A stretch of 30,543 nt of DNA from IMG/VR virus record IMGVR_UViG_3300010970_000074; one strand, given 5' to 3'. Made by a program: the position numbers and the translations under genes. A model generated the notes under the pieces. It was not told the origin of the DNA and searched no databases. It was given only the letters and a program-made list of their open reading frames with translations. The DNA is from a virus. Shown here in pieces: positions 148-30,543 of the stretch; the first letter of the stretch is position 1; each line of letters starts with the position of its first letter.

Positions 148-209
148 TTGTATATTTGTAGTGGATGTGAGATATCCAATATTTAAACTTATTAGGCTTG
201 ATAATGATG
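1..209. repeat. Direct terminal repeat / assembly overlap, left copy (identical to 30335..30543)
   Basis: Base-by-base reading: gagtttatgtcttacaaatgg...attaggcttgataatgatg is present at both window ends, 209/209 identical. Confidence 0.95.
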
Positions 210-250
210 TATAATCTCACTATACTGATTTTGATAGCCTTTTTTATTTT
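151..250 (+). promoter_or_regulatory. Element E1: TATATTTG promoter box plus ~90-nt structured leader ending in a T-run, paralogous to 25380..25478
   Basis: TATATTTG 151..158. GGATGTGAGATATCC 163..177. Outer pairing AGGCT 194..198 / AGCCT 236..240. Inner hairpin GTATA-ATCTCAC-TATAC 209..225. T-run 240..245, then ATG at 251. Confidence 0.5.
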
Positions 251-721
251 ATGTTACCAATAAAAGGATTTGAAAACTATCTAATTACAAAAGATGGATT
301 TGTAGTTAATAAAAAAACAAATAGGATTTTAAAGATGTCATTGCAAACAACAGGATATAATCAAGTTTGTTTGTCCAAAAAAGGAGTTTCTAAAGCATTT
401 ACAGTACATAGATTAGTAGCTGAAAATCATATTAAAAACCCAAATAATTACCCTTGCGTAAATCACATTAATGGAGTAAAAACTGATAATATGATTGAGA
501 ATCTTGAATGGATAACCTATTCGGATAATCATAAACACGCTTTTAAATTAGGATTAAAAAAGCCACCAATGTACGCTTGTAAAAGGGTGTTGAATACTGA
601 AAATGGTATTATATATAATTCAGCAACCGAAGTCGCAAAATTAATTGGAATGAAAAAGCAAGATTTGTTTAATAGATTAAATGGAGGTGCGTTAAACCAA
701 ACTTGTTATGTTTATCTATAA
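251..721 (+). CDS. HNH homing endonuclease (NUMOD4-like N-terminus, HNH core, C-terminal NUMOD1/IENR1-like DNA-binding module), paralog 1
   Basis: N-terminus GFENYLITKDGFVVN. HNH core HRLVAENH...VNHINGVKTDNMIENLEWITYSDNHKHAF. C-terminus GIIYNSATEVAKLIGMKKQDLFNRL. Confidence 0.85.
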   Translation: MLPIKGFENYLITKDGFVVNKKTNRILKMSLQTTGYNQVCLSKKGVSKAFTVHRLVAENHIKNPNNYPCVNHINGVKTDNMIENLEWITYSDNHKHAFKLGLKKPPMYACKRVLNTENGIIYNSATEVAKLIGMKKQDLFNRLNGGALNQTCYVYL

Positions 722-727
722 AAGTTG

Positions 728-735
728 TATTTTTG
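728..735 (+). promoter_or_regulatory. Candidate Bacteroidota-type -7 promoter box TATTTTTG
   Basis: Matches TAnnTTTG, 16 nt upstream of the portal ATG at 752. Confidence 0.4.
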
Positions 736-4897: not shown

Positions 4898-4929
4898 AAA
4901 AGACCCCATCTTAATCGGTGGGGTTTTTT
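4898..4929 (+). terminator. Rho-independent terminator after the capsid gene
   Basis: ACCCCA 4903..4908 pairs with TGGGGT 4919..4924. The stem can be extended inward (C4910-G4917), an A-run precedes it and a T-run 4924..4929 follows. Confidence 0.8.
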
Positions 4930-4942
4930 ATTATATTTATTG

Positions 4943-4950
4943 TAAATTTG
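4943..4950 (+). promoter_or_regulatory. Candidate -7 promoter box TAAATTTG
   Basis: TAnnTTTG match 12 nt upstream of the ATG at 4963, right after the capsid terminator. Confidence 0.5.
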
Positions 4951-11578: not shown

Positions 11579-11586
11579 TAACTTTG
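11579..11586 (+). promoter_or_regulatory. Candidate -7 promoter box TAACTTTG, 5 nt before the HNH ATG
   Basis: TAnnTTTG match in the 14-nt gap before 11592. Confidence 0.35.
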
Positions 11587-11591
11587 TAGTT

Positions 11592-12095
11592 ATGGCAGAC
11601 AATGTAATTGGTAAAAATATAAATAACTATCCTAATTATTTTATAAATGAATTAGGAGAAGTAACTAATGTAAAAACAGGTAATAAATTAAAAAATTATC
11701 TTGGTAAAACTGGTTATTATGTAGTAAATCTATATAATGATAAAGGTAAAAAATTAACCTATGTACATAGAATTTTAGCTGAAGCATACTTAAATAAGGT
11801 GCTAGATAAAAATCATATTAACCATAAAAACGGTATCAAATCCGATAATAGATTAGAAAATTTAGAATGGGTAAATCATAGTGAAAATATTAAACATTCT
11901 TATAATACAGGTTTATCAAATTCTACTAAAATAGCAAACTCAATTAAACAATCAAAAGTTGTTTTAGATTTGCAAACTGGTATTTTTTACGAAAGTGCAA
12001 AAGAAGCAGCTAAATTATTAGGAATAAATTCTAATACATTAAGATGTTATTTAAATAATTATTACCCTAATAAAACAAATTTAAAATACGTTTAA
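11592..12095 (+). CDS. HNH homing endonuclease, paralog 2 (inside the tail module)
   Basis: NNYPNYFINELGEVTN, then VHRILAEAYL...INHKNGIKSDNRLENLEWVNHSENIKHSY, then GIFYESAKEAAKLLGINSNTLRCYL. The C-terminus NKTNLKYV is close to paralog 3 (NKTTLIYV). Confidence 0.85.
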   Translation: MADNVIGKNINNYPNYFINELGEVTNVKTGNKLKNYLGKTGYYVVNLYNDKGKKLTYVHRILAEAYLNKVLDKNHINHKNGIKSDNRLENLEWVNHSENIKHSYNTGLSNSTKIANSIKQSKVVLDLQTGIFYESAKEAAKLLGINSNTLRCYLNNYYPNKTNLKYV

Positions 12096-20747: not shown

Positions 20748-21218
20748 TTATTTTGCCCTGTTTTGATATTTATATCCCATAGCTGATAATGCTTTATGAA
20801 TAGCACCAATAGTTATATTCCCTTGAGCATCTCTTTTTTCCATATCCAAAACACCTTGTTTTGTAATGCCCATTGCTTCGCCTAGTTCTTCCATACTCAT
20901 TTTTTTCTCTAATCTGCATTGTTTAATAAGCCCTATTGGAGTAAAAGCATCTTTGCCAAATCCATATTTCCATAATAAATCATCGCTTAAACCTTCAACA
21001 AATATTTGTAATTCGGTATTGTATTCAAACCATTCCCCACTACTACTAGCAGGTTTAAACATTTTATGATAATTTCTTTCATCTTCCCTATTGCCTTCAA
21101 TTAAACCAAGTACTTCTAATTTAACAGGGCAACTTACTTGTAATGTGCTTAATCTTAATTTAATTCTATCGGTATAACCAATTTTAACATAATCGGTATG
21201 CTTTATAAAATATATCAT
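20748..21218 (-). CDS. T5orf172 (GIY-YIG-like) domain fused to an XRE-family HTH; candidate phage repressor/regulator
   Basis: N-terminus MIYFIKHTDYVKIGYTDRIKLRLSTLQ...EDERNYHKMF...GEWFEY. C-terminus LIKQCRLEKKMSMEELGEAMGITKQGVLDMEKR. It is the only minus-strand gene. ATG at 21218 is preferred over the TTG at 21236. Confidence 0.75.
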   Translation of the reverse strand: MIYFIKHTDYVKIGYTDRIKLRLSTLQVSCPVKLEVLGLIEGNREDERNYHKMFKPASSSGEWFEYNTELQIFVEGLSDDLLWKYGFGKDAFTPIGLIKQCRLEKKMSMEELGEAMGITKQGVLDMEKRDAQGNITIGAIHKALSAMGYKYQNRAK

Positions 21219-21219
21219 A

Positions 21220-21257
21220 ACTTTACTTTTTAGCAAATATAAGGAAAAAAGTAAAGT
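21220..21257. promoter_or_regulatory. Perfect 12-bp inverted repeat (ACTTTACTTTTT / AAAAAGTAAAGT) flanking the regulator's -7 box
   Basis: Arms are at 21220..21231 and 21246..21257. On the minus strand the 14-nt spacer contains TATATTTG. Confidence 0.6.
21234..21241 (-). promoter_or_regulatory. Candidate -7 promoter box TATATTTG for the minus-strand regulator
   Basis: The reverse complement of caaatata is TATATTTG, 15 nt upstream of the ATG at 21218. Confidence 0.5.
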
Positions 21258-21284
21258 AATAGCTTTGGGTTTGTAAATAAATGG

Positions 21285-21295
21285 GTTTACATATT
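21285..21295 (-). promoter_or_regulatory. Inverted copy of the 11-mer AATATGTAAAC
   Basis: GTTTACATATT on the + strand is the exact reverse complement of the repeats at 16766 and 16789. Confidence 0.45.
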
Positions 21296-21320
21296 TATAT
21301 AAATCGGTAACAATACTACC

Positions 21321-21345
21321 TAAAGTTCTCTAATAGCAAACTTTA
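21321..21345. promoter_or_regulatory. Operator-like palindrome TAAAGTT-N11-AACTTTA
   Basis: 7-bp perfect arms at 21321..21327 and 21339..21345. Confidence 0.5.
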
Positions 21346-21354
21346 TCAATCACA

Positions 21355-21378
21355 AAAGTTACCCAATAAGGCAACTTT
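21355..21378. promoter_or_regulatory. Operator-like palindrome AAAGTT-N12-AACTTT
   Basis: 6-bp perfect arms at 21355..21360 and 21373..21378, using the same half-site as the neighbouring palindrome. Confidence 0.45.
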
Positions 21379-21406
21379 GAGCCGTATTTGAGCGATAATC
21401 GGCTCA
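21378..21406. repeat. 29-bp GC-rich hairpin element, copy B (TGAGCCG-N15-CGGCTCA)
   Basis: A perfect 7-bp stem with a 15-nt loop. Its reverse complement matches copy A at about 22 of 29 positions. Confidence 0.55.
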
Positions 21407-21463
21407 TTTATGACCTATAAAAAGAAATTTAAATAATTTTTTGGTAGTATTGTAATTGTTTTA

Positions 21464-21471
21464 TATCTTTG
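21464..21471 (+). promoter_or_regulatory. Candidate early promoter: -7 box TATCTTTG with an upstream TTTG (21440..21443)
   Basis: TAnnTTTG match with a TTTG about 21 nt upstream. It overlaps the inverted repeat CTTTGTT-AA-AACAAAG (21467..21482). Confidence 0.5.
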
Positions 21472-21516
21472 TTAAAACAAAGGGAGAGGCACTCCATATA
21501 AACTGCACCATTAGTT

Positions 21517-24392: not shown

Positions 24393-24887
24393 ATGGCAAT
24401 TATTGAAGAATTCCCAAATTATTCTATTGACATAAAAGGCAATGTTTATAATACTAAAAATAATAAATATTGCCACTTTAATAAAGACAATTATGGATAT
24501 ATATTAGTCAATTTGAGAAAAGAAAATATTTGGTATAAAAGAAAAGTTCATAGATTGTTGGCACTTTCATATTTACCAAACCCTGAAAATAAATGTGATG
24601 TAAATCATATAGATGGCAATAAGTCTAATAATGATTTATCAAATTTAGAATGGGCAACTAGAAGCGAAAATATGAAACACGCATATAGAATTGGATTAAG
24701 TTTTATTAGTAATAAAAATATAGAACAATTAAAAAAAAGAAGTAGTAAAAAAGTATTAGATACTAAAACTAAAATAATTTATGAAAGTGCAACATTTGCT
24801 GCAATGAAATTAGGTATTAATAAAAATACTTTAAAAGGTTATTTAGTAGGAAATTATAAAAATAAAACAACATTAATTTACGTTTAA
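24393..24887 (+). CDS. HNH homing endonuclease, paralog 3
   Basis: EEFPNYSIDIKGNVYN, then VHRLLALSYL...VNHIDGNKSNNDLSNLEWATRSENMKHAY, then IIYESATFAAMKLGINKNTLKGYL. Confidence 0.85.
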   Translation: MAIIEEFPNYSIDIKGNVYNTKNNKYCHFNKDNYGYILVNLRKENIWYKRKVHRLLALSYLPNPENKCDVNHIDGNKSNNDLSNLEWATRSENMKHAYRIGLSFISNKNIEQLKKRSSKKVLDTKTKIIYESATFAAMKLGINKNTLKGYLVGNYKNKTTLIYV

Positions 24888-25182: not shown

Positions 25183-25377
25183 ATGAGCCAAAACAAACAA
25201 ATTGCAGACTACCTAAATAAGGGTAAAAAGCTAACTCCAATTGATGCCTTAAACAAATTCGGTTGCTTTAGATTAGCAGCACGAATAGCTGATTTAAGGA
25301 ACGAAGGAATGAATATTGTAACTAGAACAATCAAGCTGGAGAATAAGAAGCAGATTGCCCAATATTCGGTTAAATAG
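25183..25377 (+). CDS. Small winged-helix/HTH DNA-binding protein (HTH_39-like)
   Basis: LTPIDALNKFGCFRLAARIADLRNEGMNIVT matches the L-T-P-x-x-A-L...G-x-x-R-L-A-A-R-I-x-x-L-R pattern. Confidence 0.6.
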   Translation: MSQNKQIADYLNKGKKLTPIDALNKFGCFRLAARIADLRNEGMNIVTRTIKLENKKQIAQYSVK

Positions 25378-25379
25378 CT

Positions 25380-25478
25380 TATATTTGCACAGGATGTAGG
25401 ATATCCGTTTATTAACTTATTGGCTCAAAGCTGAAACCCTAATCCTACTAGGGTGGATGCCGAGAGCCTTTTTTTATT
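25380..25478 (+). promoter_or_regulatory. Element E2: TATATTTG promoter box plus ~90-nt structured leader ending in a T-run, paralogous to 151..250
   Basis: TATATTTG 25380..25387. GGATGTAGGATATCC 25392..25406. Outer pairing GGCTC 25422..25426 / GAGCC 25464..25468. Inner hairpin CCCTA-ATCCTAC-TAGGG 25437..25453. T-run 25469..25475, then ATG at 25479. Confidence 0.5.
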
Positions 25479-26168
25479 ATGGCTAAAGACCCAGCAGTGC
25501 TTTTTTACACAAGTGATTTCTTGAGTGGCACATTTACAATGACTAACGAACAGGTTGGTAAATATATTAGATTATTGTGCTTACAACATCAAAAAGGCAA
25601 ATTAACTGAAAAGGATATGTTAAGCATATGCTCTGCATATGATGTTGACATTTGGGATAAATTTAAAATTGAAAATGGTGTATTTATTAACGAAAGGATG
25701 TACAATGAGGCAGTTAGAAGGCAAAAGTTTAGTGAATCAAGGAGAAATAACGCTAAATCACCTAAAAATGATAGCACTAGCAAAGCATATGCAAAGCATA
25801 TGGAAACTGAAACTGAAACTATAAATGAAACTATAACTATAAATAAAACTAAAGCTAAAGTAAAGGTTTTACCCATCCTTTTTAGGGATAGTATTTATAA
25901 TGATATTGAAGTTTTTAGTTCAGCTTTCATTGGAACTCAATATGAATTTGCTAACTTTAATTTTTACTACGAAAAGGTTAAGAATTGGTCGGATTCTAAA
26001 AACAATAAAAAAATAGATTGGATAGCAACTGCTAAAAATTGGATGGCAGATGATATGGCAAATAATAAATTCATAGATATAAACTTTAACCCAAATGCAA
26101 AACGAATTAATCAAGATAGAAAACTCACTTACGCTGAACAACAAGCCGCAATTAGAAATAGCTACTAA
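25479..26168 (+). CDS. DUF1376 (YdaU-like) replication-module protein
   Basis: DPAVLFYTSDFLSGTFTMTNEQVGKYIRLLCLQHQKGKL is the DUF1376 N-terminal signature. Confidence 0.7.
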   Translation: MAKDPAVLFYTSDFLSGTFTMTNEQVGKYIRLLCLQHQKGKLTEKDMLSICSAYDVDIWDKFKIENGVFINERMYNEAVRRQKFSESRRNNAKSPKNDSTSKAYAKHMETETETINETITINKTKAKVKVLPILFRDSIYNDIEVFSSAFIGTQYEFANFNFYYEKVKNWSDSKNNKKIDWIATAKNWMADDMANNKFIDINFNPNAKRINQDRKLTYAEQQAAIRNSY

Positions 26169-26805
26169 ATTAACCGATAAATACGAGGTTAAAATATACG
26201 AGGCAATTAATTCAATGAGTATCAGTAAATGCTCAAAAATAGAAGTAAAAGAAGTACTTAAAACCTGTTTACAATTAAGCGGAACACAATCCCCAGCAAT
26301 GGGTGATTTTGACTTTATTGTAGATTTTGTACTTGATAACTACGGAATATTTAAACTAAAGGAATTAAAAACCGCCTTTGAAATGTTAGCAGCAGATAAA
26401 CTATCAGTTGAAAAACATATCATTTTTAACCCCAAGTTAATCGGTGAGGTAATGTCAGCCTATAAAAAGATAGCAGTACAGGTAAGGCAAAAAACACAAA
26501 TAAACGAAATAAAAGAAACACCAATGCAGATAAATGAAGAACAAGCCATAAAAGATGAAATGGAATGGTGGGATAAATCGGAGCAAAAGAATTGGAAGTT
26601 CTTAAACCATCAAGTATTTGACTATATGTGGAAACGAGGTCAAATTAAAATATCAAAGGAACAAGGCGAAACAATAAAAGCAAAAGTAATGGCGGTATTT
26701 TTAGCTGATTCTAAACGACCACAGGATATGTTAATAGATGAGGACACTATGCGACAACAATGTAAAAAATATTCATTAATGATGCACTTTAATAACCAAT
26801 TATAA
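26095..26805 (+). CDS. Hypothetical replication-module protein (start uncertain)
   Basis: The 236-aa ORF from ATG 26095 overlaps the upstream gene by 74 nt. The in-frame ATG at 26215 is an alternative start. Confidence 0.5.
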   Translation: MQNELIKIENSLTLNNKPQLEIATKLTDKYEVKIYEAINSMSISKCSKIEVKEVLKTCLQLSGTQSPAMGDFDFIVDFVLDNYGIFKLKELKTAFEMLAADKLSVEKHIIFNPKLIGEVMSAYKKIAVQVRQKTQINEIKETPMQINEEQAIKDEMEWWDKSEQKNWKFLNHQVFDYMWKRGQIKISKEQGETIKAKVMAVFLADSKRPQDMLIDEDTMRQQCKKYSLMMHFNNQL

Positions 26806-26817
26806 AACAAATAACCT

Positions 26818-27033
26818 ATGAAAACAGCAATGCAAGAATTAATTGAATGGCATAGAAAATCAATGCGTTCATATTCTGAAACAAATAAAATGATTGAGTC
26901 ATTACTTGAAAAAGAAAAAGAACAGCATAAAGAAACTTGGTTTAGGTCAACTGCTCAATTTGATAATTCAGCAGAAATAACTTATAAAAAGCTATTTGAA
27001 GAACACTACAACGAAACTTACAACCAAAATTAA
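26818..27033 (+). CDS. Hypothetical protein
   Basis: 71-aa ORF preceded by the conserved junction motif AACAAATAACCTATGAAA. Confidence 0.5.
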   Translation: MKTAMQELIEWHRKSMRSYSETNKMIESLLEKEKEQHKETWFRSTAQFDNSAEITYKKLFEEHYNETYNQN

Positions 27034-27039
27034 TAACCT

Positions 27040-27285
27040 ATGAAACTATATACAGAGGAACAAGTAATAACTTTTGCAATTAAAGTATTATCAGATTATG
27101 AAATCAATGGTACTTTTTACAATAGAGAAAAACTTAAAGAAACATTAGATGTAACCCCAATAAAACTACCAAGTGATGAGGAGATGGCTAATGCTTCTAA
27201 TCATTGCAAAGATGGTCAAGTGAAAATAGGATTTTTAAGAGGAGTTTTATGGCTAAAAGAACAAATACTTAAACAAAACAAATAA
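27040..27285 (+). CDS. Hypothetical protein
   Basis: 81-aa ORF. No motif recognised. Confidence 0.5.
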   Translation: MKLYTEEQVITFAIKVLSDYEINGTFYNREKLKETLDVTPIKLPSDEEMANASNHCKDGQVKIGFLRGVLWLKEQILKQNK

Positions 27286-27288
27286 CAT

Positions 27289-27534
27289 ATGAAAACATTA
27301 TTAATTGGACTATTATTATTTTTATTATTATCCTGCGAAACAAAACCCAAAAAATATAAATATCAAATAGGAAGTGTAATTCTATTAAAGCAAGATTCTA
27401 TATTAGCTGTTGTATTAGCACAAGATGCTTATTTAGAGGGATACGATTATCAAGTAAGTTATAGAACAAAAGATGGCAAAATTGAATATATGGGTTTAGA
27501 TGAGCAAGCAATATTAATGTTAAAAAACAAATAA
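27289..27534 (+). CDS. Putative lipoprotein
   Basis: MKTLLIGLLLFLLLSCETKPKK has a signal peptide and a lipobox-like LLSC. Confidence 0.55.
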   Translation: MKTLLIGLLLFLLLSCETKPKKYKYQIGSVILLKQDSILAVVLAQDAYLEGYDYQVSYRTKDGKIEYMGLDEQAILMLKNK

Positions 27535-27719: not shown

Positions 27720-27849
27720 ATCAGTAGCCTACGCCCATAGAGTAACAGGTGTAAATGAATACCAAATCAAACAATCCTTAAACCCTGTAAACAAGAAACG
27801 ATTTACCTACCAAGACCGAATAGTTGTTTTTCGTACTTTAAAACCCTAA
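27649..27849 (+). CDS. Small protein resembling the NUMOD1/IENR1-type DNA-binding module of homing endonucleases (start uncertain)
   Basis: VRMIYLDNKQETIFKSVAYAHRVTGVNEYQIKQSL parallels the C-terminal modules of the three HNH genes (for example VVLDLQTGIFYESAKEAAKLLGINSNTLRCYL). It overlaps 27537..27719. Confidence 0.35.
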   Translation: MNGAENSQPVRMIYLDNKQETIFKSVAYAHRVTGVNEYQIKQSLNPVNKKRFTYQDRIVVFRTLKP

Positions 27850-27854
27850 TTTTG
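27847..27854 (+). promoter_or_regulatory. Candidate -7 promoter box TAATTTTG, 4 nt before the ATG
   Basis: TAnnTTTG match overlapping the upstream stop codon. Confidence 0.35.
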
Positions 27855-27858
27855 CATT

Positions 27859-28230
27859 ATGGCTTTACAATCAATTCCAAGATTAACCGCAAAGGCTCAA
27901 CAAATATTTAACCGATACATTAGGACTAGAGATAGTCAAGATGGGTATTTTACCTGTATTAGTTGCGGTCAAGTAAAGGATTTTGAATATATGGATGCTG
28001 GGCATTATGTTCCTGTCAAGGGAAGTTCTGCATTAAGGTTTGATGAATACAACGTAAACGGAGAATGTAAATCCTGCAATGGCTTTGACCAATTCCACCT
28101 AATAGGTTATCGCAGAAACCTAATTGATAAAATAGGCGAACGAATGGTTTTGCACCTAGAAAGCCAACACAGGCTAATAAAGAAATGGTCAAGGACTGAA
28201 TTAAACGAATTAATTGAAAAATATAAGTAA
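27859..28230 (+). CDS. ninG: NinG/Rap-like recombination endonuclease
   Basis: FNRYIRTRDSQDGYFTCISCGQ...DAGHYVPVKGSSALRFDEYNVNGECKSCN matches the lambda NinG family pattern. Confidence 0.75.
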   Translation: MALQSIPRLTAKAQQIFNRYIRTRDSQDGYFTCISCGQVKDFEYMDAGHYVPVKGSSALRFDEYNVNGECKSCNGFDQFHLIGYRRNLIDKIGERMVLHLESQHRLIKKWSRTELNELIEKYK

Positions 28231-28995: not shown

Positions 28996-29343
28996 ATGCC
29001 GAATCCCGAAAACTTAAAACCATTCCCTAAAGGAGTATCAGGAAACCCAGCAGGGAAACCTAAAGGAGTTGAACATAGCAAAACAAGACTATTGCGATTA
29101 CTTCAATTAGTAACTAAAGTGCGTAACCCTGTTACAGGCGAAGATGAGGAATTTACAATAGCCGAGCAACTAGATATGAAGATAATTGCAAAGGCAATGA
29201 AATCCGATTTAAAGGCTTATCAGGAAATACTTGATAGATTAGAAGGCAGAGCAAAACAAACAACCGACATAAACGCAAACATTCAAGGTAGCGTTCAAAT
29301 AGTAATACAAGAAGATGACCGATGTAAACCAATTGAAGATTAA
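28996..29343 (+). CDS. terS: Putative terminase small subunit
   Basis: 115 aa, directly upstream of and overlapping terL. The N-terminus NLKPFPKGVSGNPAGKPKG is common in small terminase-like (DUF5681-type) proteins. Confidence 0.5.
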   Translation: MPNPENLKPFPKGVSGNPAGKPKGVEHSKTRLLRLLQLVTKVRNPVTGEDEEFTIAEQLDMKIIAKAMKSDLKAYQEILDRLEGRAKQTTDINANIQGSVQIVIQEDDRCKPIED

Positions 29344-30481
29344 TGCCACACCTGTATTCTTTGCCAACAAAAAAGCATACGAAAGCACTTATCCTGTCAT
29401 TTGTAATGAAGGTGGCACAAGAAGTTCAAAGAGTTATTCCATTGTTCAGTTATTAATTGAAATAGCCTACAACAATCCAAAGACAAGGATTTCAATAGTA
29501 TCTCATTCCCTTCCCCATATTAAGCGTGGTGTTTATAGGGATTTTAAAAGCATAATGGAGAATTGGGGTTTATGGTCGGACAATGACTTTAGTTTTTCCG
29601 ATTTTATTTACACTTATCCCAATGGGTCTTACATTGAACTATTTGGATTAGAAGATGAAAGCAAGGCTAGAGGACCAGCAAGGGATATTCTATTCATTAA
29701 CGAAGCCAACTTAATCAAAAGAACTTTATACGACCAATTACTAATGCGAACCACAGGTAAGGTATTTCTAGATTGGAATCCTGCCGACTTTGTTAATTGG
29801 GTTTATGAAATAGCTGATAATCCTGAAAACAAACGCATTCATTCTACCTACCTAAACAATATCCCAAACCTATCGGAATCACAAATAAAAAACATTGAGC
29901 AATATCAAAACCTACCTGATGACTTTATGTGGAAGGTTTACGGATTAGGGCAAAGAGGTGCAGCAAAAGAATTAATCTACACCCAATGGAAACTTTACGA
30001 TACATCACCCGAAGGAGATGTATTCTATGGTCTTGACTTTGGTTATGTGCATCCAGCTGCACTTATAAAGGTTACACATCACGAAGGCGAAAACTACTTT
30101 GAGGAAATCATTTATCAAAGTGGACTTACACTATCCGACCTTACAAGATTAATAAAAGAGAAAGTACCTGAACGAGCAACCATCTACGCAGATGCAGCAG
30201 AACCAAAATCAATAGAAGAACTTTACCGACAAGGATTTAATATTAAACCTGCTCAAAAGGATGTATGGGCAGGAATTGTTAAAATGAAATCTTATCCTAT
30301 AAACATTCACTATCATAGCCAAAACCTACGCAGAGAGTTTATGTCTTACAAATGGAAAAAGGATAAAAACGATAATGTAATTGAAGAACCTGTCAAAGCA
30401 AATGATGATGCTTTAGATGCTTCAAGGTATGCAGTATTTACGCATTTAACCAAACCTAAATTTTCAGTATCGGTGTTTTAA
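29315..30481 (+). CDS. terL: Terminase large subunit (PBSX/Terminase_3-like)
   Basis: Walker A GGTRSSKS. Walker B-like ILFINEAN. Nuclease acidic residues in GLDFGY, ADAAEP and NDDALDASRYA. Confidence 0.9.
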   Translation: MTDVNQLKINATPVFFANKKAYESTYPVICNEGGTRSSKSYSIVQLLIEIAYNNPKTRISIVSHSLPHIKRGVYRDFKSIMENWGLWSDNDFSFSDFIYTYPNGSYIELFGLEDESKARGPARDILFINEANLIKRTLYDQLLMRTTGKVFLDWNPADFVNWVYEIADNPENKRIHSTYLNNIPNLSESQIKNIEQYQNLPDDFMWKVYGLGQRGAAKELIYTQWKLYDTSPEGDVFYGLDFGYVHPAALIKVTHHEGENYFEEIIYQSGLTLSDLTRLIKEKVPERATIYADAAEPKSIEELYRQGFNIKPAQKDVWAGIVKMKSYPINIHYHSQNLRREFMSYKWKKDKNDNVIEEPVKANDDALDASRYAVFTHLTKPKFSVSVF

Positions 30482-30543
30482 TTGTATATTTGTAGTGGAT
30501 GTGAGATATCCAATATTTAAACTTATTAGGCTTGATAATGATG
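30335..30543. repeat. Direct terminal repeat / assembly overlap, right copy (identical to 1..209)
   Basis: Same 209-nt string as 1..209. It covers the terL 3' end, its stop codon and the first 59 nt of element E1. Confidence 0.95.

Follow-up and report, generated by a model that had tools for sequence, protein, structure and literature searches.

Genome and location of the element

The window, i.e. the whole stretch of 30,543 nt of viral DNA analysed here, ends with the sequence with which it begins: Bases 1–209 are identical to 30335–30543. This 209-nt terminal repeat shows that the genome is complete and terminally redundant, with a length of 30,334 bp. Almost all genes are located on the + strand. 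The packaging and structural set comprises TerL (29315–30481), portal, a Mu-F-like protein, protease, an HK97-type capsid protein, tail genes and lysozyme. The early block codes for RecT, a second HNH protein and a winged-helix HTH_39 protein, and the replication block for a DUF1376/primosomal-like protein, NinG, a ParB-like protein and DUF5681. Regions upstream of gene starts are A-rich (51% A over 46 starts) and do not contain a Shine-Dalgarno motif, gene blocks are preceded by TAnnTTTG boxes, and the nearest cultured TerL proteins, which are 39% identical, belong to Parabacteroides, Bacteroides and Flavobacterium phages. For these three reasons, the host almost certainly belongs to the Bacteroidota.

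For TerL, 6452 homologs were found at E ≤ 1e-20, and the relatives originate overwhelmingly from freshwater metagenomes. Against cultured phages, a 25 kb megablast yielded no match, a sensitive blastn search with E2 only chance hits and tblastn with the protein encoded downstream of E2 one fragment. A covariance-model search for the element in one Parabacteroides phage genome gave no hit.

Two regions, E1 (151–250) and E2 (25380–25478), are paralogous copies of one RNA module of ~85 nt on the + strand (Table 1). The general layout is a -7 box, a 5' hairpin P1 (4–5 bp, 7-nt loop), a linker of 14–16 nt, a second hairpin P2, a U-tract and AUG. P2 is an irregular hairpin of 47 nt; its two internal loops are symmetric and rich in purines, and its apical loop has 7 nt. 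From base to tip, the order is outer stem, internal loop (3x3 or 4x4), two middle pairs, second symmetric internal loop, inner stem and apical loop. In E1, both internal loops are UGAU/UGAU, and U.U, G.A and A.G pairs are possible. The upper internal loop of E2, UGAA/GGAU, allows U.U, G.A, A.G and A.G. The 3' end of the linker is the conserved AACUUAUU, and the last eight bases of the linker, AACTTATT, are kept in every kissing type (see below). A covariance-model search of the genome found exactly two copies. A candidate third copy at 30493 was rejected, as it is the terminal repeat, and all remaining hits had E > 0.5.

Table 1. Features of E1 and E2 and their neighbourhood (window coordinates)
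Feature	Position	Strand	Remarks
E1 -7 box TATATTTG	151–158	+	Bacteroidota sigmaA consensus TAnnTTTG; predicted +1 at 163
E1 P1	163–177	+	arms GGAT (163–166) / ATCC (174–177); 7-nt loop GTGAGAT (167–173)
E1 linker	178–193	+	3' half AACTTATT at 186–193, kept in all kissing types
E1 P2	194–240	+	outer stem AGGCT (194–198) / AGCCT (236–240)
E1 P2 middle pairs	A203-T231, A204-T230	+	
E1 P2 inner stem	209–213 / 221–225	+	GTATA / TATAC; loop ATCTCAC (214–220)
E1 T-run TTTTTTATTTT	241–250	+	between P2 and ATG at 251; terminator-like U-tract
NUMOD4 + HNH_3 homing-endonuclease gene	251–721	+	travels with E1-type elements
Winged-helix HTH_39 gene	25183–25377	+	ends 2 nt before the E2 -7 box
E2 -7 box TATATTTG	25380–25387	+	predicted +1 at 25392
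E2 P1	25392–25406	+	arms GGAT (25392–25395) / ATCC (25403–25406); loop GTAGGAT (25396–25402)
E2 linker	25407–25421	+	AACTTATT at 25414–25421
E2 P2	25422–25468	+	outer stem GGCTC (25422–25426) / GAGCC (25464–25468)
E2 P2 middle pairs	G25430-C25460, C25431-G25459	+	
E2 P2 inner stem	25436–25441 / 25449–25454	+	CCCTA (25437–25441) / TAGGG (25449–25453); loop ATCCTAC (25442–25448)
E2 T-run TTTTTTTATT	25469–25478	+	reaches ATG at 25479
First replication-module gene	25479–26168	+	weak DUF1376 / primosomal-like N-terminus
Partial E1 repeat	30485–30543	+	5' part of E1 within the terminal repeat; not a third copy

Covariation of the two hairpins

The first-pass annotation had deduced a conserved RNA fold from compensatory base changes between E1 and E2. 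All inner and outer hairpin sequences and coordinates which it quoted are correct. Three of the five inner-stem pairs differ between the copies, all of them with compensation, and the 7-nt loops differ at two positions. The outer stems are found in the same register, and four of their five pairs are compensated. Both nested hairpins are predicted by RNAfold for E1 as well as for E2. The unpaired flanks are symmetric as proposed and comprise 10+10 nt in E1, but also 10+10 nt in E2 instead of the reported 11+11 nt, or 9+9 nt if A25436-T25454 is counted as a pair. Since the folding stability of the + strand is unremarkable (z = -0.43 and -1.59), the case for the fold rests on covariation.

The element is present on >100 viral contigs. 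An exact-pattern scan of viral contigs yielded 42 loci, and more were obtained by further scans and protein-anchored retrieval. A loose DNA pattern returned mostly unrelated loci that were filtered before use. Scanning a genome collection gave 19 hits, of which one is real: L248, a 4.7-kb contig of a Bacteroidota MAG. The others are chance hits, as predicted from the information content of the pattern. In a MAFFT alignment of 22 homologs, 97.7% of the cells are paired, and 12 of 24 pairs are changed on both sides. None of 500 shuffles was as good, and with slid 3' partners, only 37–50% were paired. Another MAFFT alignment was left out because the 3' strand of the E1-type rows was displaced by one column. 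In an alignment of 47 distinct sequences to the covariance model, 98.6% of the cells are paired, and both sides are changed in 18 of 24 pairs; being fitted to the model, this alignment leans towards structure, and the MAFFT alignment and the raw sequences agree with it. Hence, the conserved RNA fold is borne out by the homologs. In the 47 sequences, P2 includes U.G and G.U pairs, which would be A.C on the other strand. This means that it is the + (transcribed) strand that folds.

The 5' block GGATGT..GATATCC had been viewed as a protein-binding palindrome apart from the structured module. It is, however, hairpin P1. In relatives, the P1 stem covaries (AGGT/ACCT, GAGT/ACTC, AGAAT/ATTCT and TGATAT/ATATCA versus GGAT/ATCC), with GC/AU exchanges at three of four positions. 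The palindrome GGATATCC is present in E2 and missing in E1 and most relatives. It is a by-product of the loop end GGAT adjoining the arm ATCC. From the proposed combination of a sequence-specific site with a structure-specific module, the structured part is supported, and the separate site is not. An extended P1 of 6 bp with a 3-nt loop, as suggested by MFE prediction, was rejected, because the extra pairs are impossible in the GTAAGAG and GTTGCAG types.

Complementary loops

The loops of P1 and P2 are exact reverse complements of each other, both in E1 (GTGAGAT/ATCTCAC) and in E2 (GTAGGAT/ATCCTAC). Where the 5' block differs between the copies, at two positions, the P2 loop has two compensating differences. 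Relatives with TerL proteins at least 96% identical contain GTCAGAT/ATCTGAC, GTCGGAT/ATCCGAC, GTCGTAT/ATACGAC, GTAAGAG/CTCTTAC and GTTGCAG/CTGCAAC, and the Bacteroidota MAG contig contributes GTCGCAT/ATGCGAC. The latter pair is found in L262, and with the loops swapped between P1 and P2 (ATGCGAC/GTCGCAT) in L261 and L269. This yields eight distinct loop pairs and one swapped pair, with 7 of 7 nt complementary in all of them. Over 46 distinct sequences, the kissing helix is 100% paired, four of its seven positions are changed on both sides, and at one position all four Watson-Crick pairs occur. In E1 and E2, complementarity is confined to the loops. It ends exactly at their borders, and for this reason, an antiterminator or any other helix joining the P1 region to P2 was rejected. 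As the loops of P1 and P2 are perfectly complementary and covary, these sequence data indicate a 7-bp kissing-loop (pseudoknot) interaction.

This covariation also speaks against the view that the P1 region is a near-palindromic DNA operator bound by a phage protein such as HTH_39, with P2 as the sole RNA module. P1 overlaps the predicted +1, its palindromic arms remain symmetric upon change, and the winged-helix HTH_39 gene is the conserved upstream neighbour of E2-type elements. Yet, in the eight loop types and the swapped pair, every base of loop 1 varies together with its partner in loop 2 over a distance of 40 nt, which is predicted by no operator model. Moreover, no winged-helix gene adjoins E1, and the limited occurrence of the palindrome (see above) does not fit either. 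An operator at this position is extremely unlikely.

The two loops might also pair between molecules, loop 1 of one RNA contacting loop 2 of another one hand in hand, which would lead to dimers or rings like those of phi29 pRNA, or to the binding of terminated RNA to nascent leaders. Both complementary loops are located on one RNA. According to a geometric estimate, coaxial stacking would place the base of P1 ~90 Å from that of P2, a gap that a linker of only 14–16 nt would have to bridge. In addition, the two copies per genome carry non-cross-reacting loops in the window, L029 and L219. On the other hand, pairing in cis and in trans cannot be separated by sequence data. Diversifying selection on the loops was not supported: The P2 inner stem is equally diverse, so that there is no sign of selection for specificity. 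Furthermore, no link to the packaging machinery is seen in E2-type contexts. Taken together, intermolecular pairing is highly improbable. One and the same replication-protein allele is found with up to five loop types; thus, the loops do not co-evolve with this protein.

Promoter and terminator-like end

In both E1 and E2, the -7 box is located 4 nt upstream of P1. In 86 of ~99 distinct members, it lies 4–6 nt before the P1 core and varies mainly at the two n positions. As to a -33 element, for which TTTG ~19–21 nt upstream would be expected, many members have TTTG or ATTG 19–23 nt upstream, but within the upstream coding sequence. Judging from the -7 box consensus, a host sigmaA-type promoter is predicted directly upstream of each copy. 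In Flavobacterium psychrophilum, the -7 box occupies -12 to -5 (PMC9723704), and by this rule the predicted +1 is the first base of P1, at 163 and 25392.

At the 3' end, the outer stem of P2 with 3–5 G-C pairs is followed by TTTTTTATTTT or TTTTTTTATT, as is typical for a terminator consisting of a hairpin and a U-tract. P2 is, however, not a compact uninterrupted stem but long and interspersed with two symmetric internal loops, and a simple consensus terminator scan of the window did not list it. P2 alone folds with -8.6 kcal/mol in E1 and -17.9 kcal/mol in E2 (overall range -8.6 to -18.6 kcal/mol). The three canonical terminators of the genome are in a comparable range (-7.4 to -17.2 kcal/mol), and their tails resemble that of P2; the canonical terminator at 4898–4929 carries a tail like the E1 T-run. 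Among the last 16 nt before the ATG, 11 (E1) and 9 (E2) are T, whereas the genome norm is A-rich. The U-tract always adjoins the ATG without a spacer. Promoter and terminator-like end taken together, each copy would constitute a complete small transcription unit of ~85 nt directly before a gene. A riboswitch expression platform was not detected: Neither strand of the P2 base has an alternative pairing, and MFE and centroid structures agree. Invariant unpaired bases are confined to the linker and the G.A loops.

If read-through were normal, the element could be a 5'-UTR stabiliser or translation insulator. The fold would guard the mRNA 5' end and keep the U-rich stretch before the AUG single-stranded for initiation without Shine-Dalgarno pairing. 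A start at the first P1 base would leave no 5' overhang, and the constant junction of U-tract and AUG would fit, too. Hosts of the Bacteroidota phylum are reported to tune initiation through mRNA structure (PMC6847099). However, all other genes in the window have an A-rich and not a U-rich initiation region, and the U-tract resembles the true terminators of the genome. Moreover, the conserved non-Watson-Crick internal loops and the linker are more elaborate than required for such a role, which is very unlikely.

Genes behind the element

In 22 of 22 close relatives whose locus extends far enough, an E2-type element separates the HTH_39 gene from the first replication gene. The genes behind these elements are Lin1244_N or DUF1376 alleles. 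In L234, a methylase is inserted upstream, and the element is still found directly before the replication gene. The early operon enters E2 without a terminator of its own.

By contrast to the E2 type, the genes behind all seven distinct E1-type sequences code for NUMOD4+HNH_3 endonucleases, which are diverse in sequence. The TerL-portal junction of 80 close relatives is empty in 71, whereas two (L200 and L201) contain a different HNH gene directly behind TATATTTG without an RNA leader, and RNA plus HNH is present in two relatives and in the window. These three alleles at one site (empty, HNH alone, RNA plus HNH) provide a natural comparison. E1 and the gene behind it are a free-standing, insertion-polymorphic HNH homing-endonuclease cassette. 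The cassette is self-contained, since portal keeps its own -7 box (728–735) and its ATG at 752, which is the true start. L219 carries a 97%-identical E1-type RNA in front of another HNH gene, with only ~50% identity of the proteins and only in the core; there, the cassette is situated before NinG and not after TerL. To judge from the sequences of L200 and L201, the leader would evidently be dispensable for HNH expression at the TerL-portal site.

The location of the element allows for a further reading, i.e. a cis-acting RNA of the HK022 put or Tn916 canT kind: A folded complex of P1 and P2 would bind the polymerase from which it emerged and render it resistant to terminators, and the built-in terminator P2 would halt unmodified polymerases arriving from upstream. 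The two copies per genome lie directly behind predicted promoters and head gene blocks, the tertiary fold is elaborate with no identified protein partner, and the open entry of the early operon into E2 would suit such a gate. Cis-acting antiterminator RNAs that guard replication genes occur in mobile elements (PMC11658703) and provide a precedent. Nevertheless, processive read-through is not obviously needed, since downstream blocks have their own -7 boxes (portal, see above, and 4943–4950 after the capsid-gene terminator). The window scan did not find a strong + strand terminator between E2 and TerL. Furthermore, known members of this class are not terminators themselves, and the element has no Rfam match. 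Processive antitermination is, therefore, distinctly unlikely.

Other architectures in distant phages

Diverged loci were retrieved with the Lin1244_N protein of a diverged relative, and regions without a model match were inspected. With replication proteins 31–85% identical, the principle is kept and the architectures differ. Promoter, 5' hairpin, terminator-like hairpin, T-run and ATG follow each other, and 7–8 nt of the loop of the first hairpin are complementary to a loop inside the second one. The loop pairs are GTAGTGTG/CACACTAC in L272, CTACGAA/TTCGTAG in L268, GTGGAAC/GTTCCAC in L291, GTGAGACC/GGTTTCAC with one G.U in L297 and GTAAGGAG/CTCCTTAC in L305, of which L307 has a variant with G.U. 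Similar loop-loop matches were found in L317, L324 and L303. A match of at least 7 nt is present in 10 of 28 real regions compared to 1 of 2800 dinucleotide shuffles. This score used only loops of MFE-predicted hairpins and missed the remaining real cases, in which the MFE fold closes the loops. No Rfam match was found in 11 loci with other architectures. The occurrence of the same principle in front of homologous replication genes, in unrelated architectures, points to a general mechanism and not to a quirk of one lineage.

The persistence of this arrangement has to be considered when the element is regarded as a stand-alone trans-acting sRNA, i.e. an abundant, compact RNA of ~85 nt with both ends protected, downstream genes being expressed by leakage only. 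It would act on other molecules via the AACUUAUU linker, which is conserved and single-stranded, or else via the G.A-rich internal loops or the hairpin loops. Consistent with an sRNA are the complete transcription unit with consensus promoter, 5'-terminal hairpin and terminator-like 3' end, the linker kept across kissing types, which looks like a seed or a protein site, and the nearly invariant (~97% identical) E1-type RNA before HNH proteins that share only ~50%. A cis relation is favoured by the ATG that always directly follows the U-tract, and by the position before one gene class across very different architectures. In the phage genome, sequences complementary to the linker are as frequent as expected (22 found versus 22 expected), and a role of the linker as seed for phage targets was therefore rejected. 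A trans-acting sRNA is, all in all, rather unlikely.

A putative leader with a built-in terminator

A start at P1 combined with a terminator formed by P2 and the U-tract leads to the reading which we prefer, if only tentatively and with slightly less than an even chance of being right: The element would be a promoter-proximal leader or attenuator that acts in cis. Transcription would begin at the first base of P1, as suggested by the distance between box and start in another flavobacterium. P2 and the U-tract would serve as intrinsic terminator, most transcripts would end as compact RNAs of ~85 nt, and the gene behind would be expressed only by polymerases that pass P2. Under the control of E2 would be the organiser of the replication module, under that of E1 a potentially toxic HNH homing endonuclease, and for both, such a leader would be appropriate. 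The kissing contact might pre-organise or lock the fold of P2 and, in this way, set the level of read-through or permit its regulation. For the element, neither a mutually exclusive antiterminator fold nor a ligand or protein partner was found; regulation of the attenuator is, for this reason, not supported. The conserved linker and the G.A-rich internal loops suggest a partner that is not part of the leader/attenuator model.

It is also conceivable, albeit very doubtful, that the element serves as a self-titrating timer or gene-dosage sensor based on sense RNA. The terminated RNA of ~85 nt would accumulate with genome copy number, and its free loops would compete in trans for the nascent P1 loop, thereby changing termination at P2. 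Nascent P1 would be made ~45 nt before its partner in cis. If true, this would be the logic of plasmid countertranscript attenuation without an antisense gene, and it would explain the presence of the module at replication genes, the loops that do not cross-pair and the borrowing by homing endonucleases.

Comparison with known systems

In Rfam 15, there is no match at gathering score, and no match with E ≤ 10 overlaps E1 or E2. ARAGORN detects neither tRNA nor tmRNA at the element, and a description of such an element was not found in literature searches. Although these phages are highly abundant in freshwater metagenomes, no account of their gene regulation has been given, and to our knowledge, RNA-based control in phages of Bacteroidota is almost uncharted. 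With its many 7-bp loop pairs, which are orthogonal by nature, the element offers a potential set of parts for synthetic biology in Bacteroidota.

Among known systems, the PR' - 6S RNA - tR' unit of lambdoid phages has a similar layout: a strong constitutive promoter, a short terminated transcript and, behind it, genes to be switched on, with a small regulator gene immediately upstream. In Stx phages, the terminated transcript acts as the sRNA StxS. However, the lambdoid leader does not have a conserved tertiary fold, and control is exerted by the DNA-loaded Q protein, whereas RNA structure is the conserved part here and no Q-like protein was found.

Each HK022 genome has two paralogous put RNAs with compensated differences between them, and the same holds true for E1 and E2. 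We know of no loop-loop pairing in put or canT RNAs. HK022 putL/putR and Tn916 canT are also structured RNAs directly behind promoters, and canT guards the replication genes of a mobile element (PMC11658703). In contrast to the element with its terminator-like P2, they are not terminators themselves. The comparison with put and canT concerns the layout only: The position behind a promoter fits, and the need for read-through does not.

Kissing-loop control RNAs are known from plasmids, among them ColE1 RNA I/RNA II, R1 CopA/CopT and the attenuation systems of pT181 and pIP501. Like the element, they have hairpin loops with full complementarity over 7 nt, situated in the leader of a replication gene, and the pT181 type has, in addition, a terminator within the leader. 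In the plasmids, the partners are a sense and an antisense transcript. Here, both loops are on the same + strand transcript and no antisense promoter is nearby: TAnnTTTG does not occur on the - strand within ~400 nt downstream of E1 or E2.

Like the element, phi29 pRNA is a phage RNA with two mutually complementary loops that covary between relatives. It differs in its 4-nt loop complements, three-way junction, binding to the portal and occurrence in phi29-like podoviruses, whereas the phage analysed here has TerS/TerL and an HK97-type layout, and the conserved place of the element is the replication module. The guanidine-II (mini-ykkC) riboswitch also consists of two linker-joined hairpins with kissing loops directly before a gene. 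Its ACGR loops are invariant and bind the ligand, whereas the loop sequence is free here as long as it is complementary. Neither the lambdoid unit nor putL/putR nor the plasmid systems have a 5' hairpin that kisses the loop of their own terminator, and as far as found, a leader designed in this way has not been described for any regulatory system. Based on these comparisons, the element is classified among the structured leader RNAs of phages.

Genome ends and structural genes

The first 209 nt of the window are repeated exactly at its end (1-209 = 30335-30543) as a terminal direct repeat, and the genome is complete, with 30,334 bp, circularly closed or terminally redundant. E1, the RNA element preceding the NUMOD4/HNH_3 endonuclease gene, straddles the artificial end of the window.

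The longest portal ORF begins with TTG 725. The conserved portal start is ATG 752 (MGLFDIFTKKKINTL), with MAFFDFLTKKKINTL as its counterpart in the related viral contig L232. This ATG is preceded by a -7 box of its own and by a conserved 16-nt leader. The strong canonical terminator and the -7 box found behind the major capsid gene (Table) look like a capsid-dosage terminator with re-initiation.

At three sites, only 3-5 nt separate the -7 box from ATG. In the window, box, spacer and start codon read TAACTTTG-TAGTT-ATG (11579-11594) and TAATTTTG-CATT-ATG (27847-27861), and on the related contig L200 (6666-6700) TATATTTG-TAT-ATG. The mRNAs predicted from such boxes would be leaderless or nearly so.

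Selected features of the window
Feature	Position	Strand	Remark
Portal -7 box TATTTTTG	728-735		upstream of ATG 752
Terminator GACCCCAT...GGTGGGGTTTTTT	within 4898-4950		strong, canonical; directly after major capsid gene
-7 box TAAATTTG	4943-4950		after capsid-gene terminator; next ATG 12 nt downstream
T5orf172/MUG113 domain + HTH_3 gene	20748-21236	-	sole sizeable minus-strand gene
Second HNH_3/NUMOD1 endonuclease gene	24393-24887		in early block

Early block and replication genes

The minus-strand gene faces a 280-nt gap (21240-21516), within which TATCTTTG (21464-21471) is probably the early promoter. The whole genome showed no integrase. The product of the second endonuclease gene is 38% identical to the endonuclease behind E1; the start region of this second gene is A-rich and ordinary and has no RNA element.

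The replication gene following E2-type elements is a domain mosaic. In relatives (e.g. loci L012, L113, L168, L029 and L157), the N-terminal domains of its product are swapped (DUF1376, Lin1244_N or unrecognised), and the proteins share the C-terminal motif ..STPDKxFRKxPxTYLNNKxxNDEI...

In another viral contig (L150), the E2-type element lacks promoter and hairpin P1 and lies ~40 nt upstream of AACTTATT; the coding sequence of the winged-helix gene HTH_39 joins the P1 tail directly (..AGGAATACCTAATTTTAAACTTATT). This loss resembles a deletion at a microhomology, or else an artefact of assembly.

Three successive small ORFs (71, 81 and 81 aa; 26804-27534) each begin inside a AAAACAAATAACCTATGAAAACA-like repeat (family D6) and appear to be small paralogous genes arranged in tandem.
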